The notes under the pieces were generated by a model. The model did no database searches and was not told the origin of the DNA. It was given only the letters and a program-made list of their open reading frames with translations. From contig JBCCYM010000004.1 in NCBI GenBank assembly GCA_039190005.1, positions 1 through 60,622 of the forward strand: DNA of 60,622 nt, read 5' to 3'. Shown here one piece after another: positions 33,260-60,231 of this stretch (the stretch's first letter is position 1; each line of letters begins with the position of its first letter). The position numbers and the translations under genes are program-made. The stretch comes from Pseudomonadota bacterium. Lineage in GTDB: Bacteria > Pseudomonadota > Gammaproteobacteria > UBA12402.

Positions 33260-35581
33260 CTAAGGCAGCGTAAACCAAACATTACTACTGGCATCCTTAG
33301 TCCATAAAATACCATTAACACTACTACTACTGTAACTCGCTGCAATCAGCACTTGATTCGTATTAGGATTAAGTAATAATTGTGATGTCGTGATACCTAT
33401 ACCACCTGTCGGAGCTGTTCTACTCGACCAACTGTTATCGGAAGCCGCATCCGCTGTATATATTATGCCAGCCACATTATCCGCACTACTAGAATAACTT
33501 TCAGCAATCACTACATGACCATTGCCGGTATTCAGCAACAGTTGTGGTGGAACTATAAATGGTTCATTAGCCGGTATTGGCTCAGTTAACCAAGTATTGC
33601 TGGACGCATTCAAGGTATACCGTACACCACCAGCATCACTACTCAAATCGGTTAAAGGAGAACCTATTGTACCATTCGCGTAACCAGCAGCAATCACCAC
33701 CTGACCATTAACGGTATCCAGTAACAATTGCGGTGTGCTCGCCCTATTTGGAGTCGGTTCAGTTAACCAATTATTACTAGAAGAGGCATCCAATGTATAT
33801 ATCACGCCATACACACCATTATCAGAATTATTATAGCTGGCAGCAATCGCTACCTTAGCTTGTCCATTGCTACTGGTATTTAATAACAACTGCGGTATAC
33901 CCACAATTGCCCTACTAGGTGCTGAGTCAGTTGACCAGCTGTTGTCTGAGGATGCCTCTAATGTATACATCACGCCATTGACACTACCAGTACCGCCATC
34001 ACTATAACTGGTAGCAATTACCACATGACCATTAACGGTATTCAGCAATAACTGCGGAGAATCCCCCACAGAAGTTGCTTGCGCCGGCACTGGTTCAGTT
34101 GACCAACTATTACCTGAAGTCACCGTATACTGTATACCATCCTCACTACCACCATAACTGGCAGCTATCACTACTTGGCTTGTGTTAGTATTAAATAACA
34201 ACTGCGGTATGCCCAAGCTCGTTACGTTATCCGGATCACTCTTAATTTGCCAACCGCTGCGTCCTGAAGACGCATCTAAAGTATACATAATGCCAACCCC
34301 ATCCAAACCCGAACCATAGCTTGCAACAATTACTACTTTATTTGTCTTGGTATTCAGTAATAACTGCGGTGTACTAACCGAAACTGTATCTGAGGGAACC
34401 GATTCAGGCATTTGCCAGCCATCACTACCTAAGGACGCATCTACCGTATACATCACACCAGGCTGAATAGCTTCTAGTCGATTGCTATAACCAGCAGCAA
34501 TTGCTACTTTGCCTGTGACAGTATTCAGCAATAACTGCGGTGTGCCCACAATTGCCCCATCAATCGGCACTGGTTCAGTCAACCAGCTACTGCCTGAAGA
34601 CGCATCCACTGTATACATCACGCCATTCACACTACCAGTATCCCTATCGCTATAATTGGCAGCAATGACTACTTGACCATTAATAGTATTCAGCAATAAC
34701 TGTGGCTCTCCCACACCTGTTGCACCATCTGGCGCATCCTTATAGTGCCAAGTCTGTCCACTATCAAGACTGTAATATAAAACTGTGCCAGATGAAAATG
34801 CCAATACTGCTTTGCCATCATTGGCGCTCACTAACGTTGCCAAACTACCTCCTTCTAAAATTTCAGGCAACACCATCACCTGAATTATGGCTGACTCTAT
34901 TGTGCCATTGGGATCGCTCACTAACAGTGTGTGTTCACCAACACTTGCGCCTTCATCTAATACGGTAAAACGACATTCTTGCGTATCTGTCAAGGTACAG
35001 GTATTGCTAACAAACGATAGCTTTGTACCGCTTGTGGTATCCTCAATATTTAATGTTGTCGCGTCCAATGGCACACGCGAACTTACTTTGTGTTGTGCTA
35101 CCGATGCCCCAACCTGTACTGTTAAGGTTTTCTCACCACCTAAGGCAATCGCTTGAACTGGCATCGTGATACCAACCGACGCGGCAGTAATTTCCAACCC
35201 CACTGTAGAAGAAACAAGTGTCACATGAGGGTTGGTATTCGACAAGCTCAAATTCAGAGTATATTGACCGGGTACTGTTGCTAATGTCGTATTAATCTGG
35301 ATGGTACAGCTTGTCTGCCCTGCCGAAATGACGCATTGACCGTTAGACGGTGTAAATGTCACCGAACTATCCAAGGATGGTGTGCTACCCGTAATTGTTG
35401 CGGTCTCATTGGTACTAATTGGCGCGCTTAAGGTAAATACAATTGAAGTACTCTTACCCACCACAATACTATTTGCTGTGATGGTCGGCGTAATGCTTAC
35501 TTGAGTGATACGATTACCGGAGCAAGCAGTTAACGCTAGCATTACTGCTATAAACAATACGGTTCTTAACTTTATGTGCAT
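33260..35581 (-). CDS. Large lipoprotein: Ig-like N-terminal modules plus about 10 tandem beta-propeller-type repeats
   Basis: Lipobox LTAC-S; Asp-box YSLDSGQTW; nine ~55-aa repeats PQLLLNT..V.IAA.Y..G..YT.DASS..W. Confidence 0.75.
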   Translation of the reverse strand: MHIKLRTVLFIAVMLALTACSGNRITQVSITPTITANSIVVGKSTSIVFTLSAPISTNETATITGSTPSLDSSVTFTPSNGQCVISAGQTSCTIQINTTLATVPGQYTLNLSLSNTNPHVTLVSSTVGLEITAASVGITMPVQAIALGGEKTLTVQVGASVAQHKVSSRVPLDATTLNIEDTTSGTKLSFVSNTCTLTDTQECRFTVLDEGASVGEHTLLVSDPNGTIESAIIQVMVLPEILEGGSLATLVSANDGKAVLAFSSGTVLYYSLDSGQTWHYKDAPDGATGVGEPQLLLNTINGQVVIAANYSDRDTGSVNGVMYTVDASSGSSWLTEPVPIDGAIVGTPQLLLNTVTGKVAIAAGYSNRLEAIQPGVMYTVDASLGSDGWQMPESVPSDTVSVSTPQLLLNTKTNKVVIVASYGSGLDGVGIMYTLDASSGRSGWQIKSDPDNVTSLGIPQLLFNTNTSQVVIAASYGGSEDGIQYTVTSGNSWSTEPVPAQATSVGDSPQLLLNTVNGHVVIATSYSDGGTGSVNGVMYTLEASSDNSWSTDSAPSRAIVGIPQLLLNTSSNGQAKVAIAASYNNSDNGVYGVIYTLDASSSNNWLTEPTPNRASTPQLLLDTVNGQVVIAAGYANGTIGSPLTDLSSDAGGVRYTLNASSNTWLTEPIPANEPFIVPPQLLLNTGNGHVVIAESYSSSADNVAGIIYTADAASDNSWSSRTAPTGGIGITTSQLLLNPNTNQVLIAASYSSSSVNGILWTKDASSNVWFTLP

Positions 35582-35721
35582 ATAAAATCCTCTACCTTTA
35601 CAACAAAAAAAACAGATCTACTCTTAGGCAAAACTAAGCTTGCTCAAATATTGTATTTAAACAAATGTGATTTTGTCAAATTTAGAGCTGAGAACTTGAT
35701 AGAAAATCAATTATATTAGTC

Positions 35722-36123
35722 TCAAACAAATTGCTTACGCAGAATATCCGGTACATACGGACGTTTCTTTGCCGGATCTCGGCAATCCATACAGACACCG
35801 ATATTATCAGCAGTTGCCGCAATGATTTCGCCTTCTGATTTAATCACTTGCTGTTTGAACAAAAATTTTAATTTGCCTTGGGGGAATAATTCGCAGGTGA
35901 CATAGAATTTATCACTGGGCAGTAGTGGCGATTGAAATTTGATATGGCTTTCAATTAAAAATAAAAGCTGTTTGTTTTCAGTGAACTCAGCAAAATCAAT
36001 GCCTATTTCCTGAAGAAATTTATGGCGGGTATGCGCCATATAAATAAAATAATTGGCATTATTGACCACACCCTGTTGGTCGATTTCACTATCTCTGACT
36101 TCAAAATCCAGACGGTACATCAA
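35722..36123 (-). CDS. Acyl-CoA thioesterase, YbgC/FadM hot-dog fold
   Basis: EVRDSEIDQQGVVNNANYFIYMAHTR motif. Confidence 0.85.
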   Translation of the reverse strand: MMYRLDFEVRDSEIDQQGVVNNANYFIYMAHTRHKFLQEIGIDFAEFTENKQLLFLIESHIKFQSPLLPSDKFYVTCELFPQGKLKFLFKQQVIKSEGEIIAATADNIGVCMDCRDPAKKRPYVPDILRKQFV

Positions 36124-36160
36124 CTTATCCTCTCTCCTCCATCATTTCTGCATTTTCCCC

Positions 36161-36237
36161 CGCCATTCCCGCGCAGGCGGTCCCTGAGCCTGTCGAAGGG
36201 CGGTCCCTGAGCCTGTCGAAGGGTCGCGGGAATGACG
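36161..36237. repeat. Hybrid REP with two tandem inserted units
   Basis: CGCCATTCCCGCGCAGG-CGGTCCCTGAGCCTGTCGAAGGG x2-TCGCGGGAATGACG. Confidence 0.88.
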
Positions 36238-36289
36238 AATAATGGAGGCAAAAATAACAGAGAAAATATATTTTAGCATAGTTATAAAG

Positions 36290-37636
36290 TTACCCCGCCG
36301 CAACAGTCATTGATTCCAGCAATATTGAACCGGTATGAATATTGCCATTGTCATCAATATCATTGGCAACATCAACGAGGTTCGCGAACATAGCTTTGAG
36401 ATTAGCGGCAATGGTCAATTCAGTCACTGGATATTGAATCTCGCCATGCTCAATCCAAAAACCACTGGCACCACGGGAATAATCACCGGTTAGAATACTA
36501 ATGCCCTGCCCCATTAAATCCGTCACCAATAAACCTTTGTCCATTTTTTTTATCAAGGCGGCAAGATCATGATCACTATGGGAAATAAACACATTTCTAG
36601 CGCCACCGGCGTTAGCAGTTGTCTGTTGATCGAGCTTTCTGGCACTGTAACTGTTGAGTAAATAATGTCGCAATACACCATTAGCGACAATAGCACGTTC
36701 TTTGGTGGCAACCCCTTCACTGTCATAGGCTGAACTTCTTAATCCTTTAAGCAAATGGGGACGTTCATCTATGGTAATATGCGGCGCGAAAACCACTTGA
36801 TTGAGTTGATCCAATAAAAATGATGATTTCTTATAAAGATTATCACCACTTATCGCTGAGAGAAAATGGTTGATCAAACCACCGGCCACACGCGCGGCAA
36901 AAATGACTGGCACCCGACAGGTAGTGAGTTTACGCGGCGATAAGCGTTCAATGGTCTTACGCGCGGCGTTATTGGCTATCCTGTCAATGCTGAGTAAATC
37001 ATCGGGATCACGCGCGACACTGTAATCATAGTCACGTTCCATGTGATTGTCTTGTTCAGCAATCAACGTACAACTATGGCTATGTCGGGTGGCAAATTTT
37101 TGTCCGATAAAGCCATGACTATTGGCGTACACGGCGCAGCTTTGCACCGAAGCCATATCAAGTCCCTCACTCTGCTTAATACGCGGATCTATCATCAATG
37201 CCTGCTTTTCCGCGGCAATCGCGGCATTAATTGCCTGTTCAGGGGTAATATCCCAGGGATGATATAAATCTAAATCCGGTATGTCGCTTGCCATCAATGC
37301 CGCATCCGCTAGCCCATGACAACTGTCTTCCTGGGTATGACGGGCGATAAAACAGGCTTTCTCAACCATTTCTTTAAGCGCTTGTTCATCGCTTGCCGTC
37401 CCTGACACAGTCGCTTTTTTTTGACCGAAATAAACACTTAAACCGATCGCTTTGCTGTTATGATAAGTGAGTGTTTCAACATCCCCCATACGCACCGTGA
37501 TGTCAAAACCTTGATTGACCAACAGTGACGCGGCGGCTTGTGTGGCACCATTTTTTTGGCTCAACTGTATTAATTGTGCCGCGATGGCTTTGGTCTTATC
37601 TTTTTCCTGTTGTATGATTGATTGTGCTACGCCCAT
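36290..37636 (-). CDS. pmbA: Metalloprotease PmbA/TldE
   Basis: VRMGDVETL, MERDYDYS, DYSRGASGFW, TIAANL. Confidence 0.95.
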   Translation of the reverse strand: MGVAQSIIQQEKDKTKAIAAQLIQLSQKNGATQAAASLLVNQGFDITVRMGDVETLTYHNSKAIGLSVYFGQKKATVSGTASDEQALKEMVEKACFIARHTQEDSCHGLADAALMASDIPDLDLYHPWDITPEQAINAAIAAEKQALMIDPRIKQSEGLDMASVQSCAVYANSHGFIGQKFATRHSHSCTLIAEQDNHMERDYDYSVARDPDDLLSIDRIANNAARKTIERLSPRKLTTCRVPVIFAARVAGGLINHFLSAISGDNLYKKSSFLLDQLNQVVFAPHITIDERPHLLKGLRSSAYDSEGVATKERAIVANGVLRHYLLNSYSARKLDQQTTANAGGARNVFISHSDHDLAALIKKMDKGLLVTDLMGQGISILTGDYSRGASGFWIEHGEIQYPVTELTIAANLKAMFANLVDVANDIDDNGNIHTGSILLESMTVAAG

Positions 37637-39088
37637 CTACTCACCTGTTTCTGTGCCACCAACAATCAGTTCATCAACCAACAATGTCGGTTGACCAACG
37701 CCCACCGGCACACTCTGCCCCTGCTTGCCACAAGTGCCGACACCTTTATCCAACTTCAAATCATCACCAACCATAGATATTTTACGCAACACCTCGGCGC
37801 CATCGCCAATTAATGTCGCGCCTTTAACCGGCTGAGTTACTTTACCCTTTTCAATTAAATACGCTTCACTGGCGGAAAAAACAAATTTTCCATTGGTAAT
37901 ATCCACCTGACCGCCACTGAAATTTACTGCGTATAAGCCTTTTTCTACCGAAGCAATAATTTCTTCCGGATTATGCGGACCGGCCAACATATAGGTATTA
38001 GTCATACGCGGCATGGGTAAATGGGCGTAAGATTCACGCCGACCGTTGCCTGTTGGCGTGGCTTTCATCAAGCGGGCGTTATGTTTATCTTGCATGTATG
38101 TTTTTAAAATCCCCTCTTCAACCAATGTGGTGCATTGCGTGGGGACACCTTCATCATCAATATTTAAGGAACCACGTCGATTCGGCAAACTACCGTCATC
38201 AACAATGGTACATAATGGTGAAGCGATCCGTTCACCAATACGATTAGTGAATACTGAACTACCTTTGCGATTAAAATCCGCTTCTAAGCCGTGACCTATG
38301 GCTTCGTGTAATAACACTGCCGGCCAACCCGGACCCAGCACGACAGGCATGACACCGGCAGGCGCTGGTTTAGCGTCAAGTTTAATCAATGCTTCGCGTA
38401 CCGCCGCTTGCGCGTAACGCGAGGCCCGATCAGATTGCTGAAAAAAGCTATAGTCAAATCGACCGCCACCACCATAATAACCCTGCTCACGACGATTGTT
38501 TTCTTCAACAATCACCATCACATCCAAACGCACCAAGGGACGAATATCCGCCGCCAGTGTGCCATCGCTTGCCGCGACCAAGACAACATCGTGTTCCGCG
38601 GATAATGCCACAGTAACACGCTTAACCCTGGGATCTAAACCATAAGCCGCTTTTTCAATCTGCCGCATTAATGCTATTTTGTCACTGTCATCTACTGTTT
38701 TGAGCGGGTTATCCCCCGCGTAGAGTTGATGGCCAAACAAATAATGTAATTGCTGAGCGTTATCACTTCCGCCATATCGGGCGATACGCTTAGCCGCCTG
38801 AATGGATTGTTCAATTTGCGGTAAAATAAGTTCATCCGAATAAGCAAAGCCAGTTTTTTCGCCACTGATGATTCTGGCGCCGACACCACGACTGCTGTTA
38901 TAACTGCCGGATTTAATAATACCATCATCCAAACGCCAACTTTCACTGCTAGACTGCTGAAAATACAGATCCGCCTGATCAATGTCACGCGCCATCATGG
39001 TATCTAATACTTTTTGCAGTTTTGACGCAGAGAGTTCCGCCGGTTCGAGCAGTGTGTGTTCCGCTTGTTTTAATAGATCGTTGATCAT
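37637..39088 (-). CDS. tldD: Metalloprotease TldD
   Basis: [39 protein letters not shown]-like GTCGKQGQ. Confidence 0.96.
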
Positions 39089-39097
39089 ATTCAGATG

Positions 39098-39451
39098 TTA
39101 AAATTTGATACCAAATCGTGATAGCAGTAAAAGCAACATAGCATAAGCCATCACGGTTAGCAATATGGCAATGAGCATGGCAAGATAAAAAGGAATTTTA
39201 AATTGTAACAATAATGTCGGCAAGCTGATGAAGAACACCAGTGACGGCAATACCAAGCAAAAAATGCCTTTTGATAATTCAGCAATCCTGTTGACATTAC
39301 CGGTATCCCAATACAACCAGAGTATCGACAGCAAGGCGATAATTGGCAATGAAGTCACTAATGCCGCGACAATGGTATTGCGCTTGGCTACTTCACTAAT
39401 AATGACAATCAGCAATGCCGAGACAAGGACTTTAATACTGTAATACAACAC
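39098..39451 (-). CDS. Small membrane protein, DUF3147-like
   Basis: IISEVAKR..AALVTSLP and LVLPSLVFF pattern, four TM segments. Confidence 0.6.
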   Translation of the reverse strand: MLYYSIKVLVSALLIVIISEVAKRNTIVAALVTSLPIIALLSILWLYWDTGNVNRIAELSKGIFCLVLPSLVFFISLPTLLLQFKIPFYLAMLIAILLTVMAYAMLLLLLSRFGIKF

Positions 39452-39476
39452 GCTGACAGTTTAGTCTAAAAGATGC

Positions 39477-40004
39477 CTAAGCTTGATAGCGTTTAACACT
39501 GGCATTGATTTCTTGACAAGCTGTTTCCGCGTCGTGCCACTGTTGTACTTTCACCCATTTACCTTTTTCTAAATCTTTATAGTGTTCAAAAAAATGTTTG
39601 ATTGATGCCAGCAAAGGCTGCGGTAAATCATCTGGCGATGTCACCTGATCATATAAAGGTGTTAATTTACTCACTGGCACAGCCAATATTTTCGCGTCTT
39701 TGCCGGATTCATCTTCCATTGCCAACATCCCCACCGGACGGCAACGAATCACCGAACCATGCACCAATGGAAAAGGGGTTACAACTAAGACATCAACCGG
39801 ATCACCATCCTCAGATAGCGTATTGGGCACAAAACCATAATTGACCGGATAACTCATTGCCGTGGCAACAAAGCGATCCACATGCAAGGCGCCACTGTCT
39901 TTGTCGATTTCATATTTAACCGGCAGTGTGTTGGCCGGAATTTCAATGACAACATTGATATCATGCGGCACATCAGCCCCGGCTTTAATTTTACTTAGAT
40001 TCAT
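39477..40004 (-). CDS. ppa: Inorganic pyrophosphatase (family I)
   Basis: [28 protein letters not shown]. Confidence 0.97.
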
Positions 40005-40107
40005 AAACAGCTCTCCTCTTAGATGTTAAATTACTAATGGCTAACTATAACAAAAATAAATCCGCTTATAAACCTAAAAACCCCACTAAAAATCGCGGCT
40101 ATCATCC

Positions 40108-40734
40108 TCAAGCAATCAAATCAGACACATCGCCTTTGCCTTGGCGAATAACTTGCGGCTCGCCGTCACATAAGTCAATCACAGTGGTCGGTTCAATACC
40201 GCAATAACCACCGTCAATCACCAGATCAATCTGATGATTCAATACATCGGCGATGGTGGCAGGATCATGCATTGGTTCCTGTTGCTCGGGCAATATTAAT
40301 GAAGCACTGGCAATAGCGTGATTATAACAGAGTAATAAATCCTGAACAATGCGATTATCCGGCACTCTAAGCCCAATACTTTTACGTGATTTACACTGAA
40401 AATAACGTGGCACCGCTTTGGTTGCCGTTAAAATAAAGGTATAGGCGCCAGGCGTGCGCGCCTTGAGAAAACGGAACGCTCGGTTATCTACTTGCGCGTA
40501 AGTCGCTATTTCTGATAAATCACGACAAACCAAGGTGAGATGATGTCGCTGATCGATACCGCGAATTTTACGTATCCGCTCAATCGCGACGCGGTCTTCA
40601 AGACGACACCCTAAAGCGTAAGCGGAATCCGTAGGATAGGCAATAATACCCCCCGCCGTCAAACACTCACTGACCTTTTTCAGCAAGCGCGCTTGTGGGT
40701 TTTCCGGATGTATATGAATAAACTCAGCCATCAT
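40108..40734 (-). CDS. yciO: YciO (Sua5/YciO/YrdC family)
   Basis: IHPENPQARL, YPTDSAYALGC, TPGAYTFIL, PTTVIDL. Confidence 0.9.
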   Translation of the reverse strand: MMAEFIHIHPENPQARLLKKVSECLTAGGIIAYPTDSAYALGCRLEDRVAIERIRKIRGIDQRHHLTLVCRDLSEIATYAQVDNRAFRFLKARTPGAYTFILTATKAVPRYFQCKSRKSIGLRVPDNRIVQDLLLCYNHAIASASLILPEQQEPMHDPATIADVLNHQIDLVIDGGYCGIEPTTVIDLCDGEPQVIRQGKGDVSDLIA

Positions 40735-40754
40735 TTCTCTATCAACTTTATTAA

Positions 40755-40993
40755 ACCTAAAAACCGCAATGGTCCCTGAGCCTGCCGAAGAGCGAACCCT
40801 GAGCCCGCCGAAGGGCGGTCCCTGAGCCCGTCGAAGGGTGGTCCCTGAGTTCGTCGAAGGGCATAACTGGCCTTTCGAGCATATTTCCGGGCTTCGACTA
40901 GCTCAGCCATCTATACCTTAAAACCTGTCAAAGGATAGTCCCTGAGCCTGCTTGCCCTGAGCCTGTCGAAGGGTCGAAGGGTGGTTTTTAGTT
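40755..40993. repeat. MITE-like element filled with REP units (four 23-bp tandem copies, a 60-bp module, a nested unit)
   Basis: Ends ACCTAAAAACC / GGTTTTTAGTT flanked by TAA on both sides; tandem units start at 40771, 40794, 40817 and 40840. Confidence 0.88.
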
Positions 40994-41043
40994 TAAAAAA
41001 TAATTATACTATACCGTAATTATAATCATAGAGACTTATCATC

Positions 41044-41586
41044 ATGCAAATGTTTTTTGAATTTTTACCGATTATTGTGTTTTTTATTGTTTACAAAATA
41101 AGCGGTATTTACGCGGCAACTGCCGCGGCAATTATTGTTTCGGTGCTACAAACAGGTATTTATTGGCTGAAAAATAAAAAACTTGACCGCTTACAGCTGG
41201 GCATGTTAGTGCTTATTGTTGTCCTTGGCGGCGCGACCCTGTTATTACATAAACCGATATTCATAAAATGGAAACCGACGGTGATCAACTGGTTGTTCGC
41301 CTTAGTTTTCTTAGGATCACAGTTTGTCGGCAAGCGGCCGTTAATTGCCACCATGCTGGGCGGCAAAATCAGCCTGCCTGATAAAGTCTGGCGACAGCTC
41401 AATTACAGTTGGAGCCTGTTTTTTATTTTGATGGGCGCGGCTAATATTATTGTCGCCTACCATTTCAGCACCAATACCTGGGTAAACTTCAAATTATTTG
41501 GAGTATTGGGACTGACCGTATTATTTGTCTTAATTCAAGCCTTCTATCTCGCCAAACATATCGATGACAGCCAACTCAAAAAATAA
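41044..41586 (+). CDS. yciB: Intracellular septation protein A (YciB/IspZ)
   Basis: FIKWKPTVINW, WVNFKLFG. Confidence 0.95.
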   Translation: MQMFFEFLPIIVFFIVYKISGIYAATAAAIIVSVLQTGIYWLKNKKLDRLQLGMLVLIVVLGGATLLLHKPIFIKWKPTVINWLFALVFLGSQFVGKRPLIATMLGGKISLPDKVWRQLNYSWSLFFILMGAANIIVAYHFSTNTWVNFKLFGVLGLTVLFVLIQAFYLAKHIDDSQLKK

Positions 41587-41839
41587 ACACCGACTTGCCG
41601 AGATACGCCAGCGCTTGCAAACAGCTTTCGCGCCTGGCTTACTTATAGTCGAAGATGACAGCCATAAACATATCGGTCACGCTGGCGCCAAAAGCGGTAA
41701 AGGACATTTCACGGTCACAATTCATGCCGAGGCTTTCCAAGATTGTGCCTTACGCACCAGTCATCAAAAAATCTATCAGGCTTTGGACGATCTGATGGAA
41801 AATGATATTCATGCGTTGTCAATAAAAATAGAAAAATGA
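41564..41839 (+). CDS. bolA: BolA family protein
   Basis: EDDSHKHIGH, GHFTVTI, HQKIYQAL, IHALSI. Confidence 0.9.
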   Translation: MTANSKNKHRLAEIRQRLQTAFAPGLLIVEDDSHKHIGHAGAKSGKGHFTVTIHAEAFQDCALRTSHQKIYQALDDLMENDIHALSIKIEK

Positions 41840-41879
41840 TTGATAAATAATGAAAAATTTAGCCATATCGTGTTAAAAT

Positions 41880-51405: not shown

Positions 51406-51846
51406 ATGAATGAAACACAATTACTGACATTTATCAGCCAACATTGGTTACTGGCAGCGCTATTTGTCATTCTGCTAGCCATGATTCTGAGCTATGACCG
51501 CGTTTTTGGCAGTCATGGGAAATCAGGCATATCGCCTCAGCAATTAGTGACGTTAATTAATCGACATGACGCTGTTATTGTTGACTTACGCCAGCGAGAA
51601 GCGTTTCGACAAAAGCATATCATTGACGCCATTAATATTCCGACCGCGCAACTTGAAAAAAGTATTGATAAGCTCAATCAATATGAAGGCAAACCGATTA
51701 TTTTAGTGCAAAACAATGATACACAAATCAATAAACAGATAAAACTGTTACAGAGCAAGCTGACCTCCGAAGTAAAATTTCTGATCGGCGGTTTTCGTGC
51801 CTGGCAAGACGCAGGTTTACCTACTCACAAAGGTCAAAAGAAATGA
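51406..51846 (+). CDS. Rhodanese-like protein (YibN type)
   Basis: N-terminal TM, VIVDLR..F..HIIDAINIP, LIGGFRAWQDAGLP; precedes grxC-secB-gpsA. Confidence 0.88.
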   Translation: MNETQLLTFISQHWLLAALFVILLAMILSYDRVFGSHGKSGISPQQLVTLINRHDAVIVDLRQREAFRQKHIIDAINIPTAQLEKSIDKLNQYEGKPIILVQNNDTQINKQIKLLQSKLTSEVKFLIGGFRAWQDAGLPTHKGQKK

Positions 51847-52103
51847 ATGTGGTGATTTATAGCACCGCACGATGCCCATCTTGCACTCGCGCTGAGAATT
51901 TATTACAATCTAAAGGTATTGCTTACGATAAAATTCTTGTTGATAATGATATTGACAAACGCAACGAGATGTTACAACGCAGCAACGGGCGACGCACAGT
52001 GCCACAAATCTTTATTAACGAGCAACATATCGGCGGTTATGATGATCTGGCAGAACTGAATCGCAGTGGTAAACTTGATCAATTACTTAATCAGGAAAAA
52101 TAA
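51843..52103 (+). CDS. grxC: Glutaredoxin 3
   Basis: CPSC, TVPQIFI, IGGYDDL. Confidence 0.92.
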   Translation: MNVVIYSTARCPSCTRAENLLQSKGIAYDKILVDNDIDKRNEMLQRSNGRRTVPQIFINEQHIGGYDDLAELNRSGKLDQLLNQEK

Positions 52104-52104
52104 A

Positions 52105-52605
52105 ATGGCAGACAATCAAACACAACAAAACACGCAAACACAACAGAATATTGATATTCAACGTATTTATATTAAAGATTTATCACTGGAAACCCCCGGC
52201 GCACCAGATGTATTTTTGCAACAAGAGCAGTGGGAACCGCAAACCAATATTGATCTCAATATTCAACACAAACAATTAAAAGATAATCACTACGAAGTTG
52301 TGTTACGCATTACCGTGACCATTACCAATAAAGAACAAGCGGTACTGGTGACTGAAGTCAAGCAAGCGGCGATTTTTAATATCACTGGCTTTAACGCTGA
52401 ACAGCTCGATCATGTGCTTGGCGCTTACTGTCCCAGCTTACTCTTTCCTTACGCCAGAGAAGCGATTTCCAGTATGTCTATACGCGCGACCATGCCACCG
52501 ATTAATCTAGCGCCATTGAATTTTGACGCGATATATCAGCAACAAAAAGCAAACGCAGCGAATAATCAGAGCGAAGCCAAAGCAAATTCACAAACAACCC
52601 ATTAG
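52105..52605 (+). CDS. secB: Protein-export chaperone SecB
   Basis: IQRIYIKDLSLETP, CPSLLFPYARE, LAPLNFDAIY. Confidence 0.96.
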   Translation: MADNQTQQNTQTQQNIDIQRIYIKDLSLETPGAPDVFLQQEQWEPQTNIDLNIQHKQLKDNHYEVVLRITVTITNKEQAVLVTEVKQAAIFNITGFNAEQLDHVLGAYCPSLLFPYAREAISSMSIRATMPPINLAPLNFDAIYQQQKANAANNQSEAKANSQTTH

Positions 52606-52617
52606 TCCTGTTCATTT

Positions 52618-53619
52618 ATGACAACAGTTGCTATCTTAGGTGCTGGCTCCTGGGGTACGGCATTGGCAATTCACCTTGCCAACTATCATCAGCAAGTCTA
52701 TCTGTGGACCGCAAGCCCTCAGCAAGTGCGACAACTGTCCGATGAGCGCTGCAACACATTATACTTGCCTGGCATTCATCTACCGGATCAGATTACTATA
52801 GAAAGTGATTTAGAGGCAGTACTTCATCAAGCCAATGATATTATTTGCGCTGTTCCCAGTCACGCGTTTAAAGCAGTGATCAAAAAATGCCATGATCACA
52901 TCGGTGAAAATAATACCCATTACCGATTCGCTTCCGCCTGCAAAGGTATTGATCCATCATCCTGTTTGCTACTCAGCGACATCGCCAAGAAAATATTAGG
53001 CAATCTGCCATTAGCGGTATTATCTGGTCCATCATTCGCTAAAGAATTAGCGCGAGCCATGCCGACAGCTATTGTCATTGCCGCTAATAATGATACGTTT
53101 ACCAATGATTTAGTAAGCTATTTTAATCATGGCAAGTTACGCGTCTACCGCAATCGCGACATGATCGGCGTACAAGTTGGTGGCGCGTTAAAAAACATCT
53201 ATGCCATTGCCGCCGGTATTTCCGATGGACTAGGTTTTGGCAGCAATGCCCGTTCCGCGATTATTACTCGCGGTCTGGCTGAAATGACCCGACTAGGCAC
53301 GGCAATGGGTGCTGAACAAAAAACCTTTATGGGACTTTCCGGACTTGGCGATTTAGTACTGACCTGCACTGATAATCAATCACGCAACCGCCGTTTCGGA
53401 TTGGCTTTGGGACAAGGCAACAGTGTCATTGACGCTGAAAAACGCATTGCCCAAGTGATAGAAGGTAAAACAACCGCTGAACATGTTACCGAATTAGCTA
53501 AAAAACACCATATCGAGATGCCGATTGCTGAGCAAGTCCATCAATGTATCAAAGGACAAACCTCAGCACAGCAGGCGTTACAATCGTTGTTAGCCAGAAA
53601 AACTAAAAATGAGTTTTAG
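52618..53619 (+). CDS. gpsA: NAD(P)H-dependent glycerol-3-phosphate dehydrogenase
   Basis: GAGSWGTALA, LSGPSFA, LKNIYAI, GLGDLVLTC, SRNRRFG. Confidence 0.97.
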   Translation: MTTVAILGAGSWGTALAIHLANYHQQVYLWTASPQQVRQLSDERCNTLYLPGIHLPDQITIESDLEAVLHQANDIICAVPSHAFKAVIKKCHDHIGENNTHYRFASACKGIDPSSCLLLSDIAKKILGNLPLAVLSGPSFAKELARAMPTAIVIAANNDTFTNDLVSYFNHGKLRVYRNRDMIGVQVGGALKNIYAIAAGISDGLGFGSNARSAIITRGLAEMTRLGTAMGAEQKTFMGLSGLGDLVLTCTDNQSRNRRFGLALGQGNSVIDAEKRIAQVIEGKTTAEHVTELAKKHHIEMPIAEQVHQCIKGQTSAQQALQSLLARKTKNEF

Positions 53620-53703
53620 ATCTAAATAGTTTAGAGTTATCATACCAATCGAGCAAAAGAACTGCTTATATTACATACACAATAAAAAAAGAGGTCAAAT
53701 AAT

Positions 53704-54156
53704 ATGAAAAATTTAACGGTATTAACAACTACATTTTTGCTAACAGTTGCAGTCTCTATCCAAATTTCCGCAACACCGAGCAATTACTTACCAAAACGTT
53801 GCCCCGAACCTTCAACTTTTGGCGATAAAATAAATATGTATCGCGCTGGCAGCAAAGGCACTCATAGCGGCTATTATTTCACTTCGACTGTTAACGGCAT
53901 TGATTTTGCCAGTCCCGCTTATGAATATGAATCAGGATACGCAAAAAAACCTAGCAGATTAATCGCTGTTCACAGCGAGCCCAATCCTAAAGGAAGACCT
54001 AGTGAAAACATTACTTGCTTTTATGAAAATGGTGTAGCAATGTCAAATGACGGTGATGAATGGGGTATGATTAAATGGAGAAACGCTCAGCATAAATTCT
54101 TTTGTCTCAAAACCGCTGGCTCAGATGACTGCCAATTCTGGTTTGTCAGAAATTAA
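53704..54156 (+). CDS. Secreted four-cysteine hypothetical protein (DUF3757-like pattern)
   Basis: Signal peptide; CP..CFY..C..DCQF cysteine spacing. Confidence 0.6.
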   Translation: MKNLTVLTTTFLLTVAVSIQISATPSNYLPKRCPEPSTFGDKINMYRAGSKGTHSGYYFTSTVNGIDFASPAYEYESGYAKKPSRLIAVHSEPNPKGRPSENITCFYENGVAMSNDGDEWGMIKWRNAQHKFFCLKTAGSDDCQFWFVRN

Positions 54157-54321
54157 ACCTTAAAACCGCAGTTGGCGGCAAGATGAGAGTGCAACAGATT
54201 GATTTGGATAGTGAAATAAAAATTTGCGTAGTCACCTTGTTGGTGATGAGCAAAATTTTTATTTTATTAGGCAAATTAAGATGTTGTGCTCTCGCTTGGC
54301 GATCAACTGCGGTTTTAAGGT
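54157..54321. mobile_element. 165-bp palindromic MITE with TAA target duplication
   Basis: TAA|ACCTTAAAACCGCAGTTG ... CAACTGCGGTTTTAAGGT|TAA (18-bp perfect TIR), imperfectly self-complementary interior. Confidence 0.8.
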
Positions 54322-54415
54322 TAAATAGCGTCAATAATAGTTTTACTCATATACACTTGGTTAATGAAATAAACACTTTTATATTTGAAAACAAAGCGTT
54401 AGCCCCCTAATCAAA

Positions 54416-54486
54416 CTGTTGCAAAATTTGCAACAGCTTAAAAGGGACTGTTGAAATCTAAATTGTTTTAGTATTTCAACAGTCCC
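54416..54486. repeat. Two adjacent short palindromes resembling collapsed IS-end pairs
   Basis: CTGTTGCAAA-A-TTTGCAACAG (54416-54436) and GGGACTGTTGAAAT..ATTTCAACAGTCCC (54444-54486). Confidence 0.55.
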
Positions 54487-54575
54487 AAAAAGAAGGCGAT
54501 AAAAACGTTAGACGGACGATTGATTATTATAATCTAAAAGATGGATTCTAGATCTTAATGTTTTAGATTTAGCAT

Positions 54576-54821
54576 TTAGAATACCAAATGATTTAAGAAA
54601 TGCATTAAATCTTCACTTTTAACTTCAGTTTTTTGTTTATCTATGATATTCTTTGCATTATCTTGCAATAGTCCCCCGGAATATTTGATCCATAATTCTT
54701 TATCTCGAACTTCTTTTATTTAAAATTCGCGACCACTTGACGTTTTTCCTCTTATTTCACGATTAATTACATTAGATAATTGTTTTCTAAAGGTGGCAAC
54801 AAGTGAGACTATTATTGTGAT
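54576..54821 (-). pseudogene. Decayed AT-rich reading frame of unknown family
   Basis: 82 codons (ITIIVSLVATFRKQLSNVINREIRG..EF*IKEVRDKELWIK..HLVF*) with one in-frame stop and no start codon. Confidence 0.3.
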
Positions 54822-54919
54822 TCAAATAATAATTTGTAAGATAATAGGGTTGAAAAATCCATAAATTAAGAAATACCAATAGTAAAAACAAGTCAGTTTA
54901 GTTAACAGGAGAATATTTT

Positions 54920-55879
54920 ATGTCAGAAATCATCATTTATAAAGCTAAAGACGGGCATATTGAGTTGAAAGTCAATTTGTCTGAAGAAACAGTTTGGCTT
55001 ACACAGAAGCAACTCTCTGATTTATTTGATAAAAACGTCAAAACCATTTCTGAACACATTAATAATATCTTTAATGAAGGTGAATTGGATGAAAGTTCAG
55101 CTATCCGGAATTTCCGGATAACTGCTCTAGATGGAAAGTTATATAATACTAAGCACTATAATTTAGATGCCATTATTTCTGTTGGTTATCGTGTTCACTC
55201 GAAACGTGGTACAGAATTTAGACAATGGGCGACTCAAATGTTAAAAGATCACCTTATTAGTGGCTATAGCATCAATGAAAAACGTTTGGCTGAACGTGGC
55301 ATCAAAGAACTACAACAATCCATCGAATTACTGCAAAAAACACTGACCCAGAATGAATTAGTCAATGACGTTGGCGTTGAGACAATTCAATTAATCATGA
55401 GCTACACCAAAACATGGCAGTTATTATTAGCTTACGATGAAGATGACTTAAAACTGCCGGAACCAAATAACGCATCTACCGCGGAACTAACATATGAATT
55501 CGCCATCAAAGCAATTGCGACATTGAAATGCGACCTTGCCGAAAGAAATGAAGCCACCGCCTTATTCGGCAATGAGCGCGAGCATGGTCTTCAAAGTATT
55601 CTAGGCAACATTAATCAAACCTTTGCCGGCGAAGTACTTTATAAAACAGCAGAAGAACGCGCGGCCCACTTGCTCTATTTTATTATAAAAGATCATCCTT
55701 TTACTGATGGTAATAAACGGATTGGCTGTCTTATTTTTTTACTTTATCTTAAACTTGAAAGTATTGTCATCAAACTAAATGATAACGGTCTAGTCGCGCT
55801 CGCCCTACTCATTGCTGAAAGCAATCCTGGTCAAAAAGATCTGATGATTCGTTTAATTGTTAATTTACTCATGGATTAA
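54920..55879 (+). CDS. RhuM-domain plus Fic/Doc-domain protein
   Basis: N-terminal ETVWLTQKQLSDLF..YNLDAIISVGYRVHS..FRQWA; C-terminal Fic motif HPFTDGNKRIG. Confidence 0.9.
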   Translation: MSEIIIYKAKDGHIELKVNLSEETVWLTQKQLSDLFDKNVKTISEHINNIFNEGELDESSAIRNFRITALDGKLYNTKHYNLDAIISVGYRVHSKRGTEFRQWATQMLKDHLISGYSINEKRLAERGIKELQQSIELLQKTLTQNELVNDVGVETIQLIMSYTKTWQLLLAYDEDDLKLPEPNNASTAELTYEFAIKAIATLKCDLAERNEATALFGNEREHGLQSILGNINQTFAGEVLYKTAEERAAHLLYFIIKDHPFTDGNKRIGCLIFLLYLKLESIVIKLNDNGLVALALLIAESNPGQKDLMIRLIVNLLMD

Positions 55880-55882
55880 TAA

Positions 55883-55941
55883 ACCTAAAAACCGCCCTTC
55901 GACCCTTCGACAAGCTCAGGGCAAGCAGGCTCAGGGACCAC
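55883..55941. repeat. MITE left end plus nested REP unit
   Basis: TAA|ACCTAAAAACCG-CCCTTCGACCCTTCGACAAGCTCAGGGCAAGCAGGCTCAGGGACCAC. Confidence 0.85.
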
Positions 55942-55970
55942 TGTTACTAAAATCGACAATTACAGAAACA

Positions 55971-57557
55971 TCATCCTACCGGATGATCAGCCAAAAATTC
56001 AGACAAACGTTGTTTAAACAGGTTCTTAGGCAGTTTTATGTTAATCGCCATCACATAGGTGACAACACATATTAACAAAATATAAACCGAACTCGATTGG
56101 AGTGAAAGTTTAGCCGTGCCGCCAAAGTCACCTAAATAACTGATTAAAAACATACCGGCAATATAGGGAATCAACCATAAGCCCAATGAAAACTCTTTTG
56201 GCCATAAGGTTTTATGACGGAACATCGCCTGAACAAATAAACAGAAGAAAACAATGCCCATGAAAATGGTTAAATGCCAAACCGTTGACCAACCACTCCA
56301 GTAAATAAGCAAGGCTGAAAAATAATAAGATAACAAATTGATCCCCATATAAATCAATCGTCTCAGTTTTGAATGATTTTGTTTATTGTAGATATAAAAA
56401 ATATGCATCACAATCGGTCCAAACGCGTAAGTTAAAGCCTGAACGGAAACAATCATCGACACCATTTCTTGCCAGCCATGAAAAGGCAAAAAGAACAACA
56501 TCGACACCACAAAATTGACAATTAAACTGACATGCGGCACGCCATAGCGATTGAGTTTTTTCATTATCTTGGGCACCATACCAATTTCGGCAATCGCGTA
56601 ACTTATACGCGCTGTCTCCACGGTAGTAATAAACGCGGCGCCAACAGGAGAAATCACCGAGTCGGTATAAAGTAATAACGCTAACCACCCCAAACCAAGC
56701 AAAGAAGCCAAAGTCACTAAAGGACTGGTTTGCCCAACCACCTGCATATCCTGCCAGCCCTGATGAATTGACACGGCCGGCAAAGAACCAGTAAACGCTG
56801 TTTGTAGGGCAACATACATAATCACAATACAGATTGTCGAACCAATGATGCCAAACGGAATCGTGCTTTTAGGTTTTGCCACTTCGGCGCTAATATTGAC
56901 AATCCCAAGAAAACCGACATACGAAAATAGAATGCCGCCATTACTAATTGCCGCTAACAAACCGGTCATGCCAAAAGGCATAAACCCACCATGACTGGAA
57001 AAATTGGATAGGCTAAAATGATCAAAAAATAAAACAATAATTGTAACAATCGGAATAATTGTTTTCCATCCGCCCAAAACATTACTCACATGTTTTGCCA
57101 GCGCGATGCCAAAATAGTTAAACAACACCAACGCCAACATAATAATGGTCGCGACAAGCAACCCTAACGCGGTTAATCGGTCATTGACAAAAAGTCCCGG
57201 AAAGAAATGCGACGAGTATTGCAAGGCTGATTGCGTTTCGATAGGTTGATAAAATGTCGTCCCCAACCATGTTAGCCAGCCAACAATACGCGACACCGAC
57301 ACACCTTGTGAAATCGACGCGTACTGTATGATGCCACCTGAAGCCGGAAATGATGAGCATAAGACAATAAACGGCGCGGCGATGACAATAATCATCACCC
57401 CACCCAATATCCATGAGAGGCTCGCCGCAGGGCCAGCAATTTTGAGCGAATAAAATGGACCAAACAACCAACCGGAACCGACAGCCGAATTAATGCCGAA
57501 AAGCAGCAGAGAAAGTTTACCGATATTCTTTTTTATTTCATTGGTCATTTTAATCAT
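55971..57557 (-). CDS. APC-family amino acid permease (YveA-like)
   Basis: GINSAVGSGWLFG, AGPAASLSW, FSYVGF..AEVAKP, NRYGVP; about 14 TM segments. Confidence 0.88.
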   Translation of the reverse strand: MIKMTNEIKKNIGKLSLLLFGINSAVGSGWLFGPFYSLKIAGPAASLSWILGGVMIIVIAAPFIVLCSSFPASGGIIQYASISQGVSVSRIVGWLTWLGTTFYQPIETQSALQYSSHFFPGLFVNDRLTALGLLVATIIMLALVLFNYFGIALAKHVSNVLGGWKTIIPIVTIIVLFFDHFSLSNFSSHGGFMPFGMTGLLAAISNGGILFSYVGFLGIVNISAEVAKPKSTIPFGIIGSTICIVIMYVALQTAFTGSLPAVSIHQGWQDMQVVGQTSPLVTLASLLGLGWLALLLYTDSVISPVGAAFITTVETARISYAIAEIGMVPKIMKKLNRYGVPHVSLIVNFVVSMLFFLPFHGWQEMVSMIVSVQALTYAFGPIVMHIFYIYNKQNHSKLRRLIYMGINLLSYYFSALLIYWSGWSTVWHLTIFMGIVFFCLFVQAMFRHKTLWPKEFSLGLWLIPYIAGMFLISYLGDFGGTAKLSLQSSSVYILLICVVTYVMAINIKLPKNLFKQRLSEFLADHPVG

Positions 57558-57560
57558 TGA

Positions 57561-57772
57561 ACCTAAAAATCGCAGCGCCCTCTGAGCCCGTCAAAAGGCA
57601 TAACAAGCTCTCCGAGAATATTCTCTGGCTTCGACAAGCTCAGCCATCTATAAGGGTGGTCCCTGAGCTCGTCGAAGGGCGGTCCCTGAGCCTGCTTGCC
57701 CTGAGCCTGTCGAAGGGTCGAAGGGCGGTCCCTGAACCTGCTTGCCCTGAGCTTGTCGAAGGGTCGAAGGGT
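57561..57772. repeat. MITE left end, 60-bp module, tandem and nested REP units
   Basis: TGA|ACCTAAAAATCGC.. then GGCATAAC..GGCTTCGACAAGCTCAGCCATCTATA and two CCTG-CTTGCCCTGAGC(C/T)TGTCGAAGGG-TCGAAGGG nested units. Confidence 0.88.
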
Positions 57773-57782
57773 TGGTAGCAAA

Positions 57783-57837
57783 ATGAGAGTGTAACAGATT
57801 GATTGGGATAGTGACATAAAAAATTGGCGCACTCACC
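57783..57837. repeat. Partial second copy of the interior of the 54157-54321 MITE
   Basis: ATGAGAGTGTAACAGATTGATTGGGATAGTGACATAAAAAATT vs ATGAGAGTGCAACAGATTGATTTGGATAGTGAAATAAAAATTT. Confidence 0.75.
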
Positions 57838-57924
57838 CTTATGTACAAATCAAAGGGACATTATCCTGATGCCATCTATTGTATATGTCTTTAATGAGGC
57901 TGTTATCCGTCATCCCCAAATAGG

Positions 57925-58082
57925 CGGTCCCTGAGCTTGTCGAAGGGTTGAAGGATGGTCCAGCTTTTCAAAAGGCATAACAAGCGCTCCAAGAACATTC
58001 TTTGGCTTCGACAAGCTCAGCCATCTATAAGGGCGGTCCCTGAACCTGCTTGCCCTGAGCTTGTCGAAGGGTCGAAGGATGG
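57925..58082. repeat. REP cluster duplicating the 57593-57772 arrangement
   Basis: GGTCCCTGAGCTTGTCGAAGGG, 60-bp module at 57970-58029, nested unit CCTGAACCTGCTTGCCCTGAGCTTGTCGAAGGGTCGAAGG. Confidence 0.85.
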
Positions 58083-58200
58083 GAGTGATAAGCAAAAAAT
58101 AGAAACTAGGCTATCTCCAGGCCTGTTTATCTCAACAACTTATGTACAAAAGACAGGAGCTGTTGAAAACTCGGCTCAGCTAACCACACCCTATTCAGCA

Positions 58201-60231
58201 TTAGGATGACAATGTATCACTGTAGCGATTTAAAATAGTAAATGCTGCCACTCTATTAGAACCAGAAGCACCACCGACACCGACAACACCGGCACTGCTG
58301 GTCAGTGGCGACCAACTGCCATCCCATTTGGCAATATAATTGACGGTTTGACCACCCGCTGTAGTAAATAGACCACCAACATAAAGATTGTTCGCGCCAT
58401 CCACAATAAGTGCCAATACACCATCATTTGTGCCACTATCAAGTGCTGACCACTGGTTTGAGTGGTTTGGGTTATCTGCGGTACTCCACCGGGCAATATT
58501 ACTTGCCACACTCGTCCCGGCAGTGGTAAATAGACCACCGGCATAAACATATTGAGCACTATCAGCAGTAGTATTGTGATTGTAAGCGATAGCTAATGCA
58601 AAAATTTGAGCTCTTGGACCAGAAACTCCCTCACCAAGCGGTGACCAGCTTTTATTGGCAATATCCCACTGAGCAATATTACCGACATTTGACACAGGAG
58701 TGTTCGTCGTACCGGCGGTATCAAAGAATCCGCCGACATAGAGTTTATCCTGATTGACATCCGTCGCTAAGGCATATACTTCCCCTTGGGAGCCGCTTTG
58801 ACGGACACCATTGCCATCAATATCCCCCAGTGCTAACCAACTAGGGTTAGCCGTACCAATATCCCCCCATTGTGCAATACCATTCACTGCCACACCACCT
58901 GCCGTATTAAGATTATTAGCACCAACATAAAGCATCTTCCCCGAAGCATCTGTTGTTAATGCGCCAAGATTAGGAGACACATTCAAACCAGTACCCAAAG
59001 ACAACCAAGCACTGCCATTCCAACTAGCAATGCCATTAAAGCCACCACTAGGAACAGGAGGCCCCAGCAAATACACATCAGATGACCGGCTACTGGTAGC
59101 AATGGCCGGTGCAAATTTAAATTGCTCGCCCAAAACACTACTGTCAATATCTATCCAATTGCTGCCATCCCATTTCGCCACACCATTGACAGTTATACCA
59201 CCCACTTCGTCTAAGTTATCACCGCCTACATAAAGATCCCCCAAGGCATCTGAGGTGAGTGATAGAATCGAACCACCACCCCCAACCCCACTGCCCAAAG
59301 GCGACCAATTGCTGCCATCCCAACTGGCAATCCGATTGACAGTCACCCCACCTGCCGTGGTAAAATTTCCACCCGCATAGAGAATAGGCGTGTTTTTAAT
59401 GGGAATACGGGTGGGGTTGCCGAAAGAACCGACGACATTGAGATAGGTATCGACAGGGACACCAATGGCGGTGCCGGTGGCCTGTGTGGCGCGGATATAG
59501 AGCCGACAACTGGCGCCGGAAGCCAGTTGACGCCAACTACCATGGCCTTGTGCATCAACCTTCCAACAATTGGTGACAGGCGAGGTAGTGGTATCCTCAC
59601 AGCCAGAGGCACACCAATTGCCATAGCGTGTGCCTTTGTAGATCTCAAAAGCTGCTGCGGGCGTTGCGGCGGTTGGATGCTGAGCGGCACTCGTACTGTC
59701 GCCGACAAAGACATTGTCAATGGCGACAGGTGGTGCGGAGGTATCGGTATTGACATTGGTAACGGTAATATCCTCCGCGCTGGGACCTTGATTGATGCCA
59801 TCCGTAGGATCAGTAAGCGTGAGTGCCAGAACACCTTTAACGGTTAAAGTTAAAAACGTAGGATCAAAGGCGACCAATGGGTTACTGGCAGAGAAAGTCA
59901 AGCGATGGGCGACGGGGTTTTCGCTGGAGTTGATGTGAATGGTTGAGATGGTACAAGTTTTACTGCCGGCGGGAATGGTACAGCTGGTTTGTTGCGAAGC
60001 TTGGAGAATGAGTGAGGGGGCACTAAAGGTGATGGTGGTATTTTGAGAGAGCGGTTGTTGAGCGGTAAAGGTAAGCGAGGTAGTGCCGCCTTGAAAGACA
60101 GAGGCAGATGATAGCGTTGGGTTGACGGTAATAAGGTTGGTTAAGTTAGACTGGCCACTACAGCCTTGAAAGAGGAGGAAAAGTGACACAAAAAGGAAGC
60201 CAGCGAGGGATTTTAGAGAAGCGTTGGTCAT
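58201..60231 (-). CDS. Large lipoprotein: Ig-like N-terminal module, Cys-containing domain, and Rax2-like GG-F-AG/W-G beta-propeller
   Basis: Lipobox FQGC-S; repeats LYAGGNFTTAGGVTVNRIASWDGSNWSPLGSGV, LYVGGFFDTAG, LYVGGLFTTAGG..IAKWDGSW. Confidence 0.75.
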   Translation of the reverse strand: MTNASLKSLAGFLFVSLFLLFQGCSGQSNLTNLITVNPTLSSASVFQGGTTSLTFTAQQPLSQNTTITFSAPSLILQASQQTSCTIPAGSKTCTISTIHINSSENPVAHRLTFSASNPLVAFDPTFLTLTVKGVLALTLTDPTDGINQGPSAEDITVTNVNTDTSAPPVAIDNVFVGDSTSAAQHPTAATPAAAFEIYKGTRYGNWCASGCEDTTTSPVTNCWKVDAQGHGSWRQLASGASCRLYIRATQATGTAIGVPVDTYLNVVGSFGNPTRIPIKNTPILYAGGNFTTAGGVTVNRIASWDGSNWSPLGSGVGGGGSILSLTSDALGDLYVGGDNLDEVGGITVNGVAKWDGSNWIDIDSSVLGEQFKFAPAIATSSRSSDVYLLGPPVPSGGFNGIASWNGSAWLSLGTGLNVSPNLGALTTDASGKMLYVGANNLNTAGGVAVNGIAQWGDIGTANPSWLALGDIDGNGVRQSGSQGEVYALATDVNQDKLYVGGFFDTAGTTNTPVSNVGNIAQWDIANKSWSPLGEGVSGPRAQIFALAIAYNHNTTADSAQYVYAGGLFTTAGTSVASNIARWSTADNPNHSNQWSALDSGTNDGVLALIVDGANNLYVGGLFTTAGGQTVNYIAKWDGSWSPLTSSAGVVGVGGASGSNRVAAFTILNRYSDTLSS

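Follow-up and report, generated by a model that had tools for sequence, protein, structure and literature searches.

In Bacteroidota, surface lipoproteins of the BACON/SusE/SusF kind combine a lipidated cysteine, a small beta-sandwich spacer and variable heads, and they occur as many paralogues. BamB, an eight-bladed beta-propeller outer-membrane lipoprotein of the BAM complex, is single, conserved and periplasm-facing. Fibrillar adhesins are built from stalk domains and an adhesive head (PMC8286594; PMC9210967). Here, we analysed two genes, P0001 and P0002, in a 60,622-nucleotide stretch of DNA (contig JBCCYM010000004.1, positions 1 to 60,622, hereafter the window) from a gammaproteobacterium of the UBA12402 lineage, together with their relatives. 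The two proteins share an N-terminal immunoglobulin-like (Ig-like) domain of about 110 residues, hereafter the module, which is followed by unrelated C-terminal heads. With a probability of roughly 60%, we read them as members of a dispersed, lineage-expanded family of envelope proteins, mostly lipid-anchored, in which an Ig-like spacer is combined with a binding head and which has grown by duplication and domain shuffling.

The family resembles the BACON/SusE/SusF lipoproteins in its predicted lipid anchor, its beta-sandwich spacer and its variable binding or catalytic heads, but it belongs to another phylum, carries mostly propeller heads and is encoded by genes that are scattered singly outside polysaccharide-utilisation loci. 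The module is not a member of the BACON families by sequence either: one of 13 modules touches BACON_2 (E 0.03), and none exceeds the cut-off for BACON or BACON_2. With the fibrillar adhesins, the family has in common an Ig-like stalk, a binding head and fast evolution by domain shuffling. The proteins nevertheless fall outside that class, as they contain one or two stalk domains and a lipobox anchor, whereas fibrillar adhesins have long tandem arrays and are attached by sortase, a type 1 secretion system or an autotransporter. Some relatives outside this genome with 8-16 tandem copies may qualify as fibrillar adhesins. The plan of lipid anchor, Ig spacer and variable head is already known from Bacteroidota and from adhesins, and the present result extends this known principle.

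P0001 (33260..35581) encodes 773 residues and P0002 (58201..60231) encodes 676; both genes, and all of their features given below, lie on the minus strand. Both proteins start with a basic n-region and a hydrophobic h-region, followed by Cys and then Ser-Gly. The predicted signal peptide of P0001 (residues 1-19, 35525..35581) ends in the lipobox L-T-A-C, with Cys20 encoded at 35522-35524. This pattern match places P0001 among the bacterial lipoproteins that are substrates of Lgt and LspA, and cleavage and lipidation are predicted from it. In P0002, the signal peptide (residues 1-23, 60163..60231) ends in L-F-Q-G-C with Cys24 at 60160-60162, an atypical lipobox with Gln at -2. The same site reads LLPGC, FTGC or LLQGC in paralogues and in a metagenome protein, P0012. 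The module occupies residues 20-135 of P0001 (35177..35524) and 24-135 of P0002 (59827..60162). BLASTP with composition-based statistics aligned residues 20-115 of P0001 with residues 24-117 of P0002 over 99 residues, with 35% identity, 51% positives and an E of 1e-8, and a C-x8-C motif lies inside the alignment. The Smith-Waterman score of the two modules was 126, compared with 44 +/- 7.6 for 2000 shuffles of one partner (z 10.8), and none of the shuffles scored as high. The family profile gives the P0001 module 86-120 bits, and the P0002 module scores 110 bits against the profile of 13 modules. BLASTP found no further alignment between the two proteins beyond their N-terminal modules. The original prediction, which had been made from the DNA letters of this locus, stands on these points: both open reading frames (ORFs) lie where it had placed them, the peptides that it quoted match letter for letter, the significance of the N-terminal alignment was borne out by a test set beforehand, and the paired cysteines and the Ser at +2 are common to both proteins.

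To describe the fold, we modelled the module with AlphaFold2 from an alignment of 13 copies. The model is confident (pLDDT, the predicted local distance difference test score, 91.3; predicted TM-score 0.82) and all-beta, with ten strands and no helix. It belongs to the Ig-like beta-sandwich fold class, defined as two-sheet, all-beta sandwiches of about 100 residues, in agreement with the earlier proposal of an Ig-like domain. Foldseek searches of the PDB and of viral models returned solely generic Ig-like or beta-sandwich domains with TM-scores of 0.5-0.69. The best match in the PDB was the CLIPPER stalk domain (9ifr) of a Gram-negative fibrillar adhesin, itself a weak match (TM-score 0.58, 16% identity), followed by cohesins and Calx-beta, while phage tail Ig domains topped the viral library. 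The CLIPPER domain has been described with an isopeptide-bond feature (10.1101/2025.04.25.650565).

At the level of sequence, the module matched no family of Pfam, NCBIfam or the PDB significantly or above the curated cut-offs. The Ig-like families tested were Big_1-5, PKD, Filamin, ASH/HYDIN-like, Calx-beta and DUF11/CARDB; scattered sub-threshold matches to Pfam models (E 0.004-0.1) each occurred in one or two members, NCBIfam gave zero matches, and the best match of the PDB profile search had an E of 0.033. The module is an Ig-like stalk domain absent from domain libraries. In the alignment of 13 copies, one Cys of the pair is invariant and the other nearly so. As the two residues fall in consecutive strands of the model, a disulfide is likely; it probably stabilises the module and would fit an extracytoplasmic protein.

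The genome assembly (1.81 Mb, 103 contigs, 98% complete, 0% contamination) was searched by tblastn and phmmer with either module, and then with a profile that was iterated to convergence. Thirteen module copies were detected in 12 ORFs, with 80-113 bits by the iterated profile, and an independent six-frame search recovered the same 13 sites. Below an E of 0.1, the genome contains no further module except a weak second match inside P0001. That match covers residues 136-241 (34859..35176), a second beta-rich domain with a profile E of 9.5e-4 and an hhalign probability of 49% (E 1.7e-4, 48 columns); both values are weak, and the domain may be a further copy of the module that has diverged strongly. 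One member, C35 (contig C35, 13207-14838, plus strand), contains two tandem modules that are 55% identical. In each of the 12 gene products the signal peptide leads straight into the module, ahead of any other domain, and conservation is seen just after the lipobox Cys as well (C-S-G-x-N/T). When lipoboxes were scored by the pattern [LVI][ASTVI][GAS]C, a pattern match only, nine of the 12 members had Cys at the expected position, and +2 is Ser in eight of them and Asp in C35. The family genes are single and scattered among housekeeping genes, with fabV, pmbA/tldD, gyrA-like, uvrA-like and mreB-like neighbours. Inspection by eye of the 70 bases before the 12 starts revealed no common upstream motif, and apart from a permease at P0002-type loci, no partner gene recurs beside the members.

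The 12 genes carry at least seven head architectures: BNR/Asp-box-like, DUF5122/Rax2, the propeller of C56, DUF6242, a Cys-pair propeller, RCC1 and the Cys-rich C7 type. Paralogues with different heads therefore exist, which was the outcome of the profile scan that the original prediction had proposed. Its further statement that the C-terminal repeats of P0001 and P0002 are entirely different agrees with their blade profiles, as those of four head types are mutually unrelated (hhalign probability <8%). P0002, C9a, C9b and C11b are paralogues over their full length (33-46% identity), each with a four-Cys middle domain and a DUF5122/Rax2-type propeller; C9a in addition matches Reg_prop with 30.7 bits (cut-off 20.4 bits). 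The heads of C11a and C35 are propellers of the DUF6242/HVO_0234 type, with a DUF6242 match in Pfam above the cut-off. C56 has its own middle domain and a further type of propeller-like repeat. The YVTN-like repeats of the C11c and C1 heads contain one Cys pair per blade, and metagenome relatives of this head touch the model of the seven-bladed Lactonase propeller. C3_50632 (contig C3, 50632-52302) has seven RCC1 repeats (PF00415, 161 bits), and the C7 head is a Cys-rich region of 444 residues with no family match. Just upstream of the C1 member (C1_88423), an ORF at 86589-87983 of the same contig (plus strand) encodes a secreted Cys-rich protein of 464 residues that was assigned to no family and has an internal duplication, with two copies of ...EGGASTESQDQANQNA.NNANASCD.... 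Directly after C9b, three ORFs with prepilin-type N-termini (e.g. GFTLLEVLISMTLL; contig C9, 22756-24618, plus strand) are probably minor pilins or pseudopilins.

In P0002, the middle domain (residues 136-280, 59392..59826), followed by alignment and by phmmer in its own genome, has four invariant cysteines and is shared with three paralogues. A Pfam scan of it gave no match. We also considered it as a diverged copy of the module, and this was rejected (hhalign probability 0.4% against the module). Diverged domains of this type precede the same type of propeller in C27, C37 and the metagenome proteins P0012 and P0035. The head (residues 281-676, 58204..59391) belongs to the DUF5122/Rax2 propellers (PF17164/PF12768), scoring 31.1 bits against PF12768 (cut-off 28.8). 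More than 2000 homologues, 33-45% identical and annotated as PF12768/PF17164, cover the head alone. Those with names come from Planctomycetota, Verrucomicrobiota and others, and their partner domains are PKD, HYR, dockerin, Ig and PF18962, the last of which we take to be a type 9 secretion system sorting domain. None of these proteins, which have other partner domains, carries the N-terminal 280 residues of P0002. The first 290 residues of the P0002 type had no relative in 185,579 species genomes. In metagenome contigs, the 80 loci kept for the same query matched its C-terminal part only and never the module; the matches mostly cover the first propeller blade, and the earliest starts at residue 141.

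The head of P0001 (residues 245-773, 33263..34849) was dissected into ten repeats of about 54 residues, nine of which begin with PQLLLNT. One canonical Asp-box (SLDSGQTW) is present in the first repeat, and the other nine are degenerate. Pfam Sortilin-Vps10 (PF15902) reached 29.4 bits, under its cut-off of 33 bits, and BNR had an E of 0.063; the top PDB matches of the blade profile were BNR/Asp-box proteins, at a non-significant E of 0.17. A word-based search of 5.8 billion proteins for homologues to align returned the query alone. We regard the head as probably a beta-propeller of the BNR/Asp-box type. Both heads had been called propellers in the original prediction, and this holds for P0002, for which PF12768 exceeds the cut-off, and is probable for P0001.

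Other stalks in this genome bear the same heads. Searches with the heads identified 12 more secreted or lipoprotein ORFs in which the module is absent, namely ten with DUF5122-type propellers, one of the DUF6242 type and one paralogue of the C7 head. They are located at C12 16533-18956, C18 12479-14887, C10 10821-14327, C28 16466-20020, C27 11809-13560, C3 71023-72987, C37 6398-7945, C50 30-1706, C60 0-1556, C17 4216-4920, C89 658-1620 and C2 33736-35100. Several of the DUF5122-type ORFs are lipoproteins of 580-1180 residues with other Ig-like domains in front of the propeller, and three are fragments at contig ends. The ORFs on C10, C50 and C60 are near-identical and sited at contig ends, so the paralogues probably break the assembly. 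The N-terminal domain of the C10, C28 and C60 lipoproteins was considered as a distant module and left uncounted, the match being weak (hhalign probability 24%). Together, the 24 ORFs comprise 15.1 thousand residues, or 2.5% of the genome. By a crude census, whose pattern missed members and caught spurious ORFs, they may account for roughly a third of its recognisable lipoproteins or more.

Outside this genome, the module is rare. When 1.84 billion representative proteins were scored with the 13-module profile, 213 had an E of 1e-3 or lower, and for 35 it was 1e-10 or lower; this genome itself accounts for nine of the top matches. All 13 genomes from the same family lack the module (E <= 1e-3), and within the class it was found in one other genome of 400 sampled from 321 genera, with 37 bits; the family had been called lineage-specific, and these counts support it. 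In a few metagenome proteins, a single strong copy (42-95 bits) precedes head types seen in this genome: the P0002 type in P0012, the DUF6242 type in P0021, the Cys-pair head in P0028 and P0049 (each on a 10,812-base contig), a middle domain and propeller in P0035, and RCC1 repeats in P0058 and P0082. The module may be internal in such proteins. It lies at residues 155-265 of P0058, directly before the RCC1 head, and at residues 744-855 of 1133 in P0135 and 677-783 of 1068 in P0127, where several other Ig-like domains precede it and the propeller follows directly. The remaining matches are long tandem-repeat lipoproteins, weak per copy (10-30 bits) and with up to 16 copies, and many of them consist of serine/threonine-rich Ig repeats. 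DUF1554, Lcl_C and a GH64-like domain are among the domains at their ends, and two of the proteins bear the name "uncultured Shewanella sp.". As for the organism itself, its SucA is 50-52% identical to proteins of uncultured Gammaproteobacteria and of Legionellales metagenome-assembled genomes (MAGs), and MAGs of Legionellales and Coxiellaceae are among the closest relatives of this protein that carry a name. On SucA, the organism may be placed loosely as Legionellales-like.

A tree of the modules was used to follow the growth of the family. Copies with the same type of head mostly cluster together, the pattern expected from duplication. An exception is the C56 module, whose partner in the tree is the C11a module (support 90/90); it is 49% identical to C11a and 44% to C35, although the middle domain and head of C56 are unrelated to theirs. 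Likewise, the P0001 module pairs (98/97) with that of metagenome protein P0135, which carries a Cys-pair head, and Cys-pair propellers are found on other stalks outside this genome. These placements, together with the occurrence of the same heads on other stalks, indicate domain shuffling on top of duplication. The notion of swappable heads in the original prediction is supported in the same way, by a C56 module that sits inside the DUF6242-headed subgroup despite an unrelated head and by the heads on other stalks.

We propose that the proteins would be exported by a Sec-type signal peptide, that the conserved Cys would most likely be lipidated in nine of the 12, and that these would reach the outer membrane by Lol-type sorting. 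Either by itself or paired with a second beta domain, the module would serve as a rigid spacer or neck that holds the head off the membrane, and the C-terminal head would bind a ligand, presumably different for each head, such as a glycan, a protein or a particle. The family would grow by gene duplication and by exchange of heads and stalks. A role in host interaction is plausible for a small Legionellales-like genome.

Several observations weigh against this reading. C11_21638, C1_88423 and C3_50632 are without the lipobox Cys and have ordinary signal peptides; the FQGC of P0002 is atypical, and the LPGC of C9b is likewise off at -2/-3. Asp at +2, found in C35, is an inner-membrane retention signal in E. 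coli, and it is also present in the type II-secreted lipoprotein PulA. The atypical lipobox of P0002, the Asp of C35 and the three members without Cys indicate that the family is not uniformly lipid-anchored. The fold of the P0001 head is unconfirmed, since single-sequence AlphaFold of the full-length protein gave an unusable pLDDT of 33. The disulfide is deduced from strand positions in the model, and the node that places C56 with C11a has moderate support. Among sequencing runs, the gene turned up in DNA data from a single marine metagenome study, and no RNA run with it was found. Finally, the heads may face the medium or the periplasm; a search for Slam (PF04575) gave no match in the genome and says nothing on topology, as control genomes were equally silent.

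This last point leads to a reading in which the proteins are periplasm-facing outer-membrane lipoproteins that act inside the envelope as scaffolds or chaperones, as BamB does, and not as surface binders. A lipobox with Ser at +2 joined to a beta-propeller is the plan of BamB, which is likewise a propeller lipoprotein of the outer membrane. For the conserved Cys pairs, an oxidising periplasm would suffice, and no surface-lipoprotein translocon was found in the Slam search, whose controls were equally silent. On the other hand, BamB has no Ig-like stalk, and envelope housekeeping factors are conserved and single-copy, whereas here 12-24 members carry unrelated heads and the family is absent from 13 of 13 same-family genomes. 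The adhesin-type partner domains in the homologues of the P0002 head also speak against it. As the repertoire is variable, lineage-specific and spread over 24 genes, the periplasmic role fits poorly, and we consider it rather unlikely.

The constant position of the module, first after the signal peptide in 12 of 12 genes and with the conserved C-S-G-x-N/T start, could alternatively mean that it is a sorting or export signal, read by a dedicated machine that flips or secretes lipoproteins to the surface. The original prediction had similarly given the module an export or anchor role, which the data disfavour. An export signal is unlikely to be present in three of 12 members without the lipobox Cys, to be duplicated in tandem as in C35, to lie internally as in P0135 and P0127, or to form arrays of up to 16 copies as in relatives elsewhere, and no conserved partner gene stands beside the members. 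We judge this explanation improbable.

A third alternative holds that the proteins are released, for example by type II secretion, and, carrying eukaryote-like domains, target a host much as Legionellales effectors do. It would account for the three members with ordinary signal peptides and for the seven RCC1 repeats of the C3 member, a domain known in Legionella effectors such as LegG1/PieG, and it would suit a 1.8-Mb genome whose SucA has relatives in Legionellales and Coxiellaceae MAGs. But nine of 12 members have a lipobox, and the homologues of the P0002-type head are mainly from free-living Planctomycetota and Verrucomicrobiota. Effectors of the Dot/Icm system have no Sec signal, so the C3 member, with its Sec signal peptide and module, misfits a translocated effector of the LegG1/PieG kind. 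DotA (TIGR04346) was searched for without a match in the genome, the control genomes being equally silent. A host-targeted effector family appears slightly less probable still. That the N-terminal likeness is compositional or due to chance, with no family behind it, could be argued from the serine/threonine-rich region and from the many weak outside matches to similarly rich tandem Ig repeats, but this has next to no chance of being correct and is refuted by the composition-adjusted BLASTP E, the shuffles, the 13 genome copies with conserved cysteines and hydrophobic positions, and the confident fold obtained from their alignment.

With respect to the genomic surroundings, a GC-rich hairpin repeat with the core TTCGACRRGCTCAGGG occurs at 23 sites between 3947 and 58068 of the window, for example at 36182-36220, 40774-40970 and 57661-58068; it is intergenic throughout, and none would be expected by chance. 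A cluster of these hairpins (57600..58090) lies between the P0002 gene and a permease gene and is not part of the family. Near P0001, two copies (36150..36235) are upstream of an ORF of 132 codons (MYRLDFEVRDSEIDQQGVVNNANYF..., 35722-36120, minus strand) that resembles, by eye only, an acyl-CoA thioesterase of the YbgC/4HBT type. This ORF sits between a pmbA/tldD pair and the P0001 gene, and the nearest hairpin lies beyond it. The two genes had been described as lying beside repeat elements, which proved not to be specific to them, given the spread of the hairpins across the window and the thioesterase-like gene that separates P0001 from them. A special link between the family genes and the repeats was accordingly rejected.

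Amino-acid permeases of the APC type, paralogous over their full length (32% identity), adjoin P0002-type genes at two loci, in the window (55971-57557, minus strand) and on contig C9 (18413-20044, minus strand), and thus accompany three of the four P0002-type paralogues. Six close paralogues of the permease are present in the genome. The adjacency could reflect either a single old segmental duplication or a functional pairing. At 54920-55879 (plus strand) of the window, an ORF of 319 residues joins a RhuM-family region at its N-terminus to a Fic/DOC domain at its C-terminus. The GC content here, 0.35 against about 0.42, is the lowest in this part of the window, and the ORF may be a mobile or toxin-like insertion.

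Returning to the family of Ig-like spacers and binding heads, a bolder and still doubtful extension is that the module forms the neck in a hitherto undescribed display system of this marine, Legionellales-like lineage, with about two dozen mostly lipid-anchored receptors whose heads are exchanged by recombination where stalk and head meet. If true, such a system would let the cell recognise different hosts, prey or particles, and the pairing of P0002-type genes with permeases would hint at capture coupled to uptake. As a domain, the module is new: an Ig-like unit of about 110 residues with a Cys pair, found in about 200 of 1.84 billion proteins, which is enough for a new profile model. That profile could annotate a set of envelope proteins otherwise called "hypothetical". 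For the organism, an uncultured marine gammaproteobacterium with a small 1.8-Mb genome, the result means that 2.5% of its DNA is spent on mostly propeller heads and Ig-like stalks. Repertoires of envelope proteins that have been expanded and shuffled are usually a sign of contact with a host, prey or substrate, and the genes of this family are therefore first candidates for the attachment to, or the sensing of, a partner.

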